Below, one piece after another: positions 6,063 through 8,204 of a stretch of 8,512 bases of DNA (the stretch's first letter is position 1; each line of letters starts with the position of its first letter). Under the pieces are notes generated by a model. That model did no database searches. It was given only the letters and a program-made list of their open reading frames with translations, and was not told where the DNA came from. A program made the position numbers and the translations under genes. Location: positions 1 through 8,512 of the forward strand of contig DAOOON010000028.1 in the NCBI GenBank assembly GCA_035387745.1, written 5' to 3'. Origin of the DNA: an archaeon (GTDB taxonomy: Archaea; Iainarchaeota; Iainarchaeia; Iainarchaeales; CSSED10-239).

Positions 6063-6134
6063 TGGACTCCGCGAGACTCGAACTCGCAACCCCTTCCGTG
6101 CAAGGGAAGTACTCTACCATTGAGCCAGGAGCCC
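6063..6134 (-). tRNA. tRNA-Ala(UGC)
   Basis: GGGCTCC-TG-GCTC-AATGGTA-GAGT-A-CTTCC-CTTGCAC-GGAAG-GGGTT-GCGAG-TTCGAGT-CTCGC-GGAGTCC-A. It has the G3:U70 Ala identity pair and a canonical cloverleaf. CCA is not encoded. Confidence 0.95.
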
Positions 6135-6163
6135 TCTAAAAAGTTTTCTTAAATTGCTTGAAA

Positions 6164-6195
6164 CTAATATAATTAACTAAAGAAATAAATATAAA
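6164..6195 (-). promoter_or_regulatory. Promoter repeat copy A (TTTATATTTATTTCTTTAGTTAATTATATTAG)
   Basis: One of three copies of a 32-nt element. This copy differs at one position from the other two, which are identical to each other. The TATA box TTTATATT lies at the distal end. The element ends 29 nt upstream of tRNA-Ala(UGC). Confidence 0.6.
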
Positions 6196-6204
6196 TAAAT
6201 CTAT

Positions 6205-6253
6205 TTTAAAAATTTGGAAGTGTTCTTTTGGAATGAAATACTTTTCTTCCAAA
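6205..6253 (-). terminator. Hairpin plus U5 tract downstream of tRNA-Ala(AGC)
   Basis: A perfect 8-bp inverted repeat, UUUGGAAG (6253..6246) and CUUCCAAA (6220..6213), is followed directly by UUUUU on the minus strand. CCUUUUCUUU tracts also follow the tRNA 3' end directly. Confidence 0.5.
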
Positions 6254-6265
6254 GAAAAGGATTCA

Positions 6266-6337
6266 TGGACTCCGCGAGATTCGAACTCGCAACCCCTTCC
6301 GTGCTAGGGAAGTGCTCTACCGTTGAGCCAGAAGCCC
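6266..6337 (-). tRNA. tRNA-Ala(AGC), an A34 anticodon
   Basis: GGGCTTC-TG-GCTC-AACGGTA-GAGC-A-CTTCC-CTAGCAC-GGAAG-GGGTT-GCGAG-TTCGAAT-CTCGC-GGAGTCC-A. It has G3:U70 and every stem is intact. It differs from the UGC copy at 5 of 72 positions, one of which is position 34. Confidence 0.9.
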
Positions 6338-6348
6338 TGTTGTCTAAA

Positions 6349-6380
6349 CTAATATAATTAATTAAAGAAATAAATATAAA
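6349..6380 (-). promoter_or_regulatory. Promoter repeat copy B
   Basis: ctaatataattaattaaagaaataaatataaa on the plus strand, identical to copy C. It ends 11 nt upstream of tRNA-Ala(AGC). Confidence 0.6.
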
Positions 6381-6385
6381 CAAAT

Positions 6386-6444
6386 CTTAAAATTGCGCAT
6401 AAGCGCGAAAACTACTGCGCGCCAACCCGAGCGAAACCGGTTGA
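6386..6444 (-). other. GC-rich structured trailer downstream of tRNA-Ala(CGC); possible terminator or processing element
   Basis: The minus strand reads UCAACCGGUUUCGCUCGGGUUGGCGCGCAGUAGUUUUCGCGCUUAUGCGCAAUUUUAAG. Possible stems are CAACC/GGUUG, GCGCG/CGCGC and GCGC-UUAU-GCGC, the last followed by AAUUUU. The composition contrasts sharply with the surrounding AT-rich spacer. Confidence 0.35.
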
Positions 6445-6516
6445 TGGACTTCGCGAGACTCGAACTCGCAACCTTCTCCATGCGAAGGAGATATTCTACC
6501 ATTGAACTAGAAGCCC
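6445..6516 (-). tRNA. tRNA-Ala(CGC)
   Basis: GGGCTTC-TA-GTTC-AATGGTA-GAAT-A-TCTCC-TTCGCAT-GGAGA-AGGTT-GCGAG-TTCGAGT-CTCGC-GAAGTCC-A. It has G3:U70 and a canonical cloverleaf. Confidence 0.95.
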
Positions 6517-6517
6517 T

Positions 6518-6549
6518 CTAATATAATTAATTAAAGAAATAAATATAAA
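6518..6549 (-). promoter_or_regulatory. Promoter repeat copy C
   Basis: The same 32-nt element ends only 1 nt upstream of tRNA-Ala(CGC). Its TATA box is about 25 nt from tRNA position 1, which would give an essentially leaderless precursor. Confidence 0.6.
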
Positions 6550-6709
6550 GAGTTATTTTAAAATTTAGTCTGATAGAAAGAACAGAATTTACGTTTAATA
6601 AAAATAAAGATTTTAATTCTTTGTGGGGTGTTAGAAGAAATTAATTTTGTTTATAAAATTTTTTGTATTTTTCAAATAATAAATCACTTGCGCAATTTTA
6701 TTTTAAAAT

Positions 6710-8204
6710 AGGAGGTGATCCGTCCGCAGGTTCCCCTACGGACACCTTGTTACAACTTAGTCCGTCTCGCAAAATGTAGAATTACTTTAACCTTTAATAG
6801 GCTAGAGTTCATCCACACTCTACTCAACTGGCTTGATGGGCGGTGTGTGCAAGGCGCAGGGACATATTCACCGCGCGATAGTGACACGCGATTACTGGGG
6901 ATTCCAGCTTCATGAGGGTGAGTTGCAACCCTCAATCCGAACTTCGGCTAGGTTTCTGAGATTGCCACCCCCTTTCGGGTTAGAGACTCATTGTCCTAGT
7001 CATTGTATGCCGCGTGTTGCCCAGAGCAATCGGGCTATACAGACCTGCCTTCGCCCATTCCTTCCTCATTGTTACCAACGCAGTCCTATTAGAGTGCCTT
7101 TCCTTATCACTAAAAAAAGTAGCAACTAATAGCATGGGTCTCGCCCGTTACCTGAGTTAACAGGAAGCTTCACAGTACGAGCTGGCGACGGCCATACAGC
7201 ACCTCTCAGCGCATCAGGTAAGCCCTTCAGACTGACCATCATCTTGCTGTCTGTTCTGGTAAGATATCTGGCGTTTCATCCAATTAAACCGCAGCATCCA
7301 CCCCTTGTAGTGCACCCCCGCCAATTCCATTAAGTTTCTGCCTTGCGACTGTACTCCCCAGGCGGTGAATTTAATGGTTTCCCTTCGGCCCTGAGTTAAC
7401 TCGTAGTTAACCCAACACCTAATTCACATCGTTTACAGCTGGGACTAACCGGGTATCTAATCCGGGTTGCGCCCCCAGCTTTCGTGTCTCACTGTCAAAT
7501 TAGTTCTCGTTTAGCGCCTTCGCCACAGGTGGTCTTCCTAGTATCTTAAGATTCTACTCCTACTCTAGGAATACCCTAAACGTCTCCCTATTTCTAGCCT
7601 ACCAGTATCCTTTGCCATTCAATGGGTTGAGCCCACTGCTTTCACAAAAGACTTAATAAACCAGCTACACACGCTTTAAGCCAAATAATGCTGGATACCA
7701 CTCGAGGATTGCGTATTACCGCGGCGGCTGGCACGCATATTGCCCCCCCCTTATTCACATAGCTATCTAAGCTATATAAAAGCCAGTTTTAGCTGGCACT
7801 TGGAGTTACTCTATCACGGTTTCCCGCATTGTAAAATTTTCGCGACTGCTGCACCCCGTAGGGCTAGGAACCTTATCTCAGTTTCCTTCTCCGGGCACCC
7901 TCTCTCAAGGCCCGTACAGATCTTCGGCTTGGTAGGCAATTACCCTGCCAACAACCTAATCTGACGCAGTCCCATCCTTTCGCATCTTACAAACATGATC
8001 GTAAGACCTTTGAAAAAACAATCATTCCAGATTTGTTTTTCTATCAAGCATTATCCTCAGTTTCCCAAGATTAACTTGTCAAAAAGGTAGGTTGACCACG
8101 CGTTACTGAGCCGTTTGCCAAAGTCTCTCATGGTCGAGACTTTCAAACTTGCATGTCTTAGTCAAACTCCAATAGCGATATCCACCAGCAGGATCAGCTG
8201 GAAT
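6710..8204 (-). rRNA. rrs: 16S (SSU) rRNA, archaeal type, complete (about 1495 nt)
   Basis: Landmarks on the minus strand: 5' end ATTCCAGCTGATCCTGCTGG; CCTACGGGGTGCAGCAG; GTGCCAGCCGCCGCGGTAATAC; ATTAGATACCCGG; GGAATTGGCGGGGGTGCAC; GCACACACCGCCCATC; 3' end GGATCACCTCCT. The ORFs called inside it are spurious. Confidence 0.97.

Follow-up and report, generated by a model that had tools for sequence, protein, structure and literature searches.

We analysed a stretch of archaeal DNA of 8,512 nt (the window), which is one entire contig (C28) of genome G000, a member of the DPANN (Iainarchaeota-labelled) family f1. On its minus strand, a 16S rRNA gene is followed by three tRNA-Ala genes with the anticodons CGC, AGC and UGC. 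The explanation we favour, with good confidence, is that the locus is made up of four independent minus-strand units, and that the tRNA genes are a duplicated promoter-plus-tRNA set in which one copy has become a reader of the GCY codons (GCU/GCC) with adenosine at position 34 (A34). Here, the GCY reader is A34 (AGC), whereas the norm in the phylum is G34 (GGC). This A34, the most unusual trait of the locus, had not been singled out in the initial annotation. The features of the locus, in the direction of transcription, are as follows.

8383..8505, minus strand: two tandem TATA-box elements, putative promoters of the 16S unit (8487-8505 and 8383-8401); a direct repeat, conserved in four species.
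8270..8326, minus strand: leader half of the predicted pre-16S processing stem; pairs with the trailer at 6603-6640.
6710..8204, minus strand: 16S rRNA gene, complete and intronless (Rfam RF01959, model positions 1-1478, 1349.5 bits).
6599..6640, minus strand: trailer half of the processing stem (6603-6640), defined by its pairing with the leader, then a T-run (6599-6607).
6518..6549, minus strand: putative private 32-nt promoter of tRNA-Ala(CGC); 0 mismatches to the consensus, conserved in four genomes.
6445..6516, minus strand: tRNA-Ala(CGC) (Rfam, ARAGORN); G3:U70 and A73; 13 differences from the UGC copy.
6385..6444, minus strand: GC-rich spacer with two predicted hairpins and a T-run; folds at -18.4 kcal/mol; not at this site in G003 and G002.
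6349..6380, minus strand: putative private 32-nt promoter of tRNA-Ala(AGC); 0 mismatches, conserved in four genomes.
6266..6337, minus strand: tRNA-Ala(AGC) (Rfam, ARAGORN); A34 at 6305, anticodon loop CUAGCAC; AGC kept in G002, G003 and G009.
6205..6265, minus strand: AT-rich spacer with a predicted hairpin and a T-run; in G000 and G002 only (not G003, G009).
6164..6195, minus strand: putative private 32-nt promoter of tRNA-Ala(UGC); 1 mismatch, conserved in four genomes.
6063..6134, minus strand: tRNA-Ala(UGC), the presumed parental isoacceptor; orthologue of the lone 16S-linked tRNA-Ala(UGC) found across the order.
5960..6062, minus strand: structured trailer after the array; -26.7 kcal/mol, z = -3.1; largely absent in G003 and G002, and for the most part particular to G000.

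Rfam and ARAGORN agree on the three tRNA-Ala genes and their order behind the 16S gene, as read in the initial annotation. All three have a cloverleaf with G3:U70 and A73 and reach Rfam tRNA scores of 62.6-65.9 bits. The distances between their starts (179 and 203 nt) and the 32-nt element in front of each tRNA were likewise reproduced. The next best match to this element in the 807-kb genome has 5 mismatches. The assembly consists of 67 contigs with 31% G+C and is 82% complete; in it, neither ARAGORN and tRNA searches nor a tRNA-Ala covariance model found a further tRNA-Ala. All alanine tRNAs found in G000 are located at this locus, in line with the earlier view that a large part of alanine decoding is concentrated there.

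The order 16S-CGC-AGC-UGC is repeated in G002, G003 and G009, three independently assembled genomes of different species. In G006, the contig breaks off within the first tRNA. An unrelated lagoon metagenome contig bridges the UGC and AGC genes and the next promoter, with A34 retained. The misassembly considered earlier is ruled out by the four agreeing assemblies and the lagoon contigs. Across the four array genomes, the promoters and tRNAs are near-invariant, and the sequence after each tRNA is variable. In G009, a gene for a 547-aa GLUG-motif protein with a pilin-like N-terminus lies between the 16S gene and the array (L036:3658-5301), and at the equivalent position of G002 (L037) there is an insert of comparable length. 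Because a gene separates the two in G009, the array tRNAs are likely independent of the rRNA transcript. The rRNA linkage of the locus described initially would thus not extend to expression, as each tRNA appears to have its own promoter. Promoter function at the locus, as well as terminator function, is predicted from sequence features.

The 16S gene of the window also appears to be a self-contained unit. Both TATA boxes are kept across the four species in otherwise variable flanking sequence, and by the archaeal TATA consensus they would act as promoters. The leader and trailer are predicted to form a stem whose core pairing GUUAGGAG/CUUCUAAC is swapped for GUGGAAGA/UCUUCCAC in the closed genome G012, i.e., a compensatory change. 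Conserved promoter elements together with a covarying processing stem are what is expected of an unlinked 16S gene with its own transcription and processing signals. An RNA-library contig from activated sludge (depth 627), identical to the 16S 3' end, breaks off at 6634, within the trailer half of the stem, and continues into the Illumina adapter, a faint hint that an RNA ends there.

No 23S rRNA gene follows the array. The 6.7 kb downstream of the 16S gene hold protein genes up to a tRNA-Tyr at the contig end, and no 23S gene was found in the 82% complete assembly. The initial annotation had pointed to the rest of the assembly for the 23S and 5S genes; the 5S gene is indeed present, solitary on a separate contig, and the 23S gene was not found. 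A 23S gene just past the contig end is unlikely, since relatives have tRNA-Glu(UUC) ~0.5-0.7 kb before the 16S gene and the 23S gene more than 100 kb away. We compared the rRNA gene layout in 60 relatives. In other families of the order in which both genes were found, the arrangement is nearly always 16S-tRNA-Ala(UGC)-23S with spacings of ~0.3-0.7 kb; the one exception outside f1 is G050 (family f30) with a 16S-23S gap of ~13 kb. In f1 genomes, the two genes are never adjacent, being on different contigs or far apart: 140 kb lie between them in the closed genome G012, and in G003 they are on opposite strands, 108 kb apart. By the distance of >1.5 kb used by Brewer et al., the downstream 6.7 kb and the f1 relatives classify the 16S gene as unlinked, and this is a trait of the whole family. 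The tRNA-Ala behind the 16S gene in f1 carries its own TATA box, whereas the spacers of linked operons in other families are GC-rich and lack one. The locus is therefore not a canonical operon with a spacer tRNA-Ala co-transcribed with the 23S gene, as the tRNAs have their own TATA promoters and the array gives way to protein genes.

Separate 16S and 23S genes have been amply documented, DPANN included (bioRxiv 10.1101/705046; PMC8997704), and this aspect of the locus is ordinary. As in the known archaeal cases (Thermoplasma type; common in DPANN and Asgard), a long distance separates the 16S and 23S genes, each has its own promoter, the genome is small with a single rRNA copy, and the 16S gene retains its processing stem. 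Unlike in those cases, the loss of linkage can here be traced to a transition between sister families of a single order. Moreover, the tRNA-Ala stayed with the 16S gene, whereas it is found beside the 23S gene in a Lokiarchaeon (PMC8997704), and it became a separately promoted gene, unlike in the described unlinked cases.

The three array tRNAs are paralogues. The AGC and UGC copies differ at 5 of 72 positions, as counted before, and the CGC copy differs from UGC at 13, the range inside the array being 5-15. By comparison, the array copies differ at 22-29 positions from the Ala(GGC) of the sister genome G011, which is of the ancestral type, and at 26-28 from the CGC of G010, which belongs to another genus. 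Thus, the copies resemble one another more than they resemble their isoacceptor counterparts in relatives. In addition, they have derived states in common: a D-loop with AA and the variable/T-arm sequence GGGGTTGCGAG. With the tRNA-Ala covariance model, no extra alanine tRNA gene was found in G000, G003 and G009, and G005, G008 and genera g4 and g5 gave a single alanine match, UGC. In G012 (839,632 bp, 24.6% G+C), Ala(UGC) is the sole alanine tRNA among 39 tRNA genes. A 16S tree places the array genomes in a single clade with support 100/99, to which G008 and G011 are the sister group. The shared derived states, the private promoter, the UGC-only sisters and the single 16S clade back the earlier proposal of tandem amplification followed by anticodon change. 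By these sequence comparisons, the array arose once, in one small clade, and re-expands a reduced tRNA set. It resembles tRNA gene recruitment, i.e., duplication plus anticodon shift, in that paralogues are closer than orthologous isoacceptors and a single base changed at position 34. It differs in that the duplicated unit includes a private promoter and in that the array re-expands a box once cut to a single U34 tRNA, yielding A34 and not G34.

Outside the array, some further tRNAs of f1 deserve mention. G010 has a dispersed tRNA-Ala(AGC) (L127:55-126; C20:7414-7485) with C33 in place of the near-universal U33, which resembles the UGC gene of the same genome and looks like a second, independent origin. 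G002 has an extra tRNA with a UGC anticodon (L119:53-127; C3:126004-126076), whose acceptor stem starts with GTT and lacks G3:U70. It is very unlike the Ala genes of f1 and may not be an alanine tRNA. In G012, the Ala and Pro family boxes are each served by a single tRNA.

A pattern search of 215 phylum genomes found the array-type Ala(AGC) in four, namely G000, G002, G003 and G009; AGC matches outside these genomes were not tRNAs. A true Ala(GGC) is present in ~50 of the 215, within f1 only in G011. G000 has a second A34 tRNA, a tRNA-Leu(AAG) (C6:5083-5164; L049:1584-1665), and no Leu(GAG) was found in this genome. Orthologues of Leu(AAG) are present in all five f1 genera, located beside tRNA-Val(UAC) or tRNA-Glu(CUC). 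We also noted a second tRNA-like sequence, different from the main Leu(AAG) gene of the same genomes, whose variable arm is long and whose loop, CTAAGAC, gives the anticodon AAG (G008 C27:3783-3817, G011 C58:5167-5201, G013 C17:8904-8938, G016 C17:7757-7791).

According to published work, archaea have few or no A34 tRNA genes (in one count, 3 of 10,517 archaeal tRNAs in GtRNAdb) and no TadA/ADAT (bioRxiv 10.64898/2026.05.15.725136; PMC11066159). Reviews describe archaea as being without A34 tRNAs and unmodified A34 as selected against throughout life. We searched for a deaminase that could convert A34 to inosine. G000 encodes two proteins of the cytidine deaminase (CDA) fold, both dCMP-deaminase-like; for the 142-aa protein, the best PDB match is 4p9c (1e-17). 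No TadA/ADAT-type deaminase was recognised in the 82% complete genome, with the TadA model NF008113 reaching 13 bits against a cut-off of 150. G012 (closed), G015 and G021 carry Leu(AAG), yet gave no PF00383 match at E<=1. The small deaminase occurs without the AGC tRNA in G005, G008 and G011, and was not found in G010, which has such a tRNA. The 142-aa protein was hence rejected as the A34 enzyme, being dCMP-deaminase-like with a distribution that does not track A34 tRNAs.

Given that no TadA/ADAT turned up and that the closed genome G012, which carries Leu(AAG), is devoid of CDA-fold genes, A34 probably remains unmodified and would pair with U. Of the Ala codons, 26% are GCU and 7% GCC, and of the CUN codons, 58% are CUU and 3% CUC, which is compatible with unmodified A34 without being decisive. 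We lean slightly towards A34 serving unmodified as an ordinary decoder of two family boxes, which would break the rule that archaea have no A34 tRNAs. Family-box tRNAs with unmodified A34 exist in reduced genomes, namely tRNA-Thr(AGU) of Mycoplasma and tRNA-Arg(ACG) of yeast mitochondria. With these, and with the Leu(AAG) of Lactobacillales, the present tRNAs share the four-codon box, the AT-rich reduced genome and a preference for U-ending over C-ending codons. In Lactobacillales, TadA converts the anticodon to IAG (PMC13249217). The present case is unlike those systems in its archaeal host and in having two tRNAs (Leu and Ala) with an encoded A34 and no TadA found. The eukaryotic tRNA-Ala(AGC), modified to IGC by ADAT2/3, has the same encoded anticodon and amino acid. 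Unlike there, no ADAT/TadA homologue was found here, and a box-wide UGC tRNA is retained alongside.

Several observations weigh against the favoured explanation. The 23S gene of G000 itself is unassembled at 82% completeness, so that unlinking rests on the genes in the downstream 6.7 kb and on relatives. Gene conversion occurs among the copies (the CGC gene of G002 has a UGC-type D-arm), so that dating by similarity alone makes the duplication look too recent. Within f1, G010 and G011 carry other Ala sets. GCC makes up 21% of GCY codons and is not depleted as a strict A:U reader might imply. The RNA contigs of this organism do not reach the AGC anticodon (6305): X17 covers the 16S 3' end and trailer only, and the X19/X20 pieces are from relatives or are chimeras. 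Finally, archaea have a tRNA adenosine deaminase activity, which forms m1I57 by an enzyme still unidentified, and a route to inosine 34 (I34) other than TadA is conceivable.

The AGC copy could be a duplicate that is decaying or has no function, or the array could stem from misassembly of repeated units. Such units do break short-read contigs, as seen in the fragmented X2 contigs, and A34 is thought to be selected against. We nevertheless regard this as extremely improbable, given that four species have kept the cloverleaf, G3:U70, AGC anticodon and promoter intact while their 16S genes diverged by up to 3% and their spacers far more. The sole stem change in the AGC copies, G-U to A-U, preserves pairing, and the identical gene order recurs in four separate assemblies and the lagoon contig. 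A different history would have three old, separately inherited isoacceptors (CGC, GGC and UGC) moved beside the 16S gene and then homogenised by conversion, with GGC changing to AGC. The conversion in the CGC D-arm of G002 would fit, as would the CGC of G010 and the GGC of G011, which lie near the 16S gene in these other family members. However, the nearest outgroups and the closed genome have UGC only, all three units share one private promoter, and the anticodon stem of the AGC copy matches UGC and not the conserved GGC type (loop TTGGCAA). Hence, we consider this history very unlikely.

A stronger contender concerns the fate of A34, which in both Ala(AGC) and Leu(AAG) might be deaminated to inosine by an enzyme that has no kinship with TadA/ADAT or is too divergent to be recognised as such, with AGC then reading GCU, GCC and GCA as in eukaryotes. 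This would suit the GCC codons, which are not depleted relative to other C-ending codons, and the array genomes do encode a small CDA-fold protein; archaea also make inosine at position 57. A34 tRNAs are, moreover, nearly always modified where studied (PMC11066159). On the other hand, no TadA-like protein was found, the small deaminase is nearest to dCMP deaminases and does not follow the A34 tRNAs, and CDA-fold genes are lacking in a closed genome that carries Leu(AAG). In relatives, UGC alone reads all GCN codons, so that GCC needs no I34 reader. On balance, inosine at A34 is possible but unlikely here. That f1 as a whole makes wobble inosine by a deaminase unrelated to TadA/ADAT, and that the crown clade extended its A34 set from Leu(AAG) to the new Ala(AGC), is an idea we hold to be rather unlikely. 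If true, such a new inosine pathway would mirror in archaea, on a small scale, the way in which eukaryotes expanded their I34 tRNAs.

Returning to duplication with a probably unmodified A34, the following order of events is proposed. The 16S gene would have been split from the 23S gene since the ancestor of f1, forming a self-contained unit with two tandem TATA promoters, a leader/trailer stem and a T-run. The family would have lost GGC and CGC and then read all GCN codons with a single U34 tRNA (UGC). In the ancestor of the crown clade, the promoter plus tRNA-Ala(UGC) unit below the 16S gene was probably tandemly duplicated twice, and single-base changes at position 34 would have given the CGC and AGC copies. 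As relatives, including the closed genome, have Ala(UGC) only, the clade appears to have rebuilt a three-isoacceptor set, with UGC for GCA, CGC for GCG, and AGC for GCU and perhaps GCC too. A34 would work unmodified with U, and the UGC tRNA would still cover GCC. Alanyl-tRNA synthetase reads G3:U70 and not the anticodon, so changes at position 34 keep alanine charging; leucyl-tRNA synthetase likewise ignores the anticodon, and position 34 is therefore free to change in both tRNAs. That both A34 tRNAs belong to anticodon-blind synthetases suggests why the Ala and Leu boxes changed first. Unlinked rRNA genes and tRNA duplication are ordinary parts of this history. Its notable part is a dated, single-origin case of a reduced archaeon rebuilding its decoding set with A34 rather than G34, in a family with a fixed Leu(AAG) and in which no known A-to-I enzyme was found.

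The spacers of the array are less uniform than its promoters and tRNAs. The initial annotation had described terminator-like structures, and neither these nor the 179/203-nt spacing are conserved, as variable insertions occur across the four genomes. The hairpins were thus rejected as conserved terminators: some of the four genomes do not have them, and for two of the three the predicted fold is no more stable than that of shuffled sequence. Searched against Rfam at relaxed settings, the array spacers matched no known family. The GC-rich element (6398-6443, minus strand) has ~9 copies in the genome and consists of a hairpin, whose loop GUUUCGCU is conserved and whose stem covaries, with GCGCGCA after it. 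The other copies in G000 are at C2:17043, C8:5152, C8:7824, C8:15737, C16:2629, C16:13497, C23:2067 and C56:169. Most copies abut a tRNA, either right after its 3' end or, in reverse orientation, right before its 5' end. Presence or absence at the same site varies among close relatives, and the element has no Rfam match.

The stretch was detected in metagenomes of activated sludge, wastewater, bioreactors and lagoons (12 studies), and lagoon DNA contigs span all of it in pieces. The protein genes below the array encode an 80-aa and a 248-aa open reading frame, a patatin-like protein, a thymidine kinase and DUF6498 paralogues. The remaining features listed for the window are the following.

184-1891, minus strand: two neighbouring paralogous DUF6498 membrane-protein genes (273 and 293 aa).
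2-130, minus strand: tRNA-Tyr(GUA) with a 54-nt intron at the extreme contig end; found by ARAGORN with introns allowed, missed by the Rfam gathering scan.

Intron-bearing orthologues of this tRNA-Tyr are also located downstream of the 16S locus in G008 and G011.

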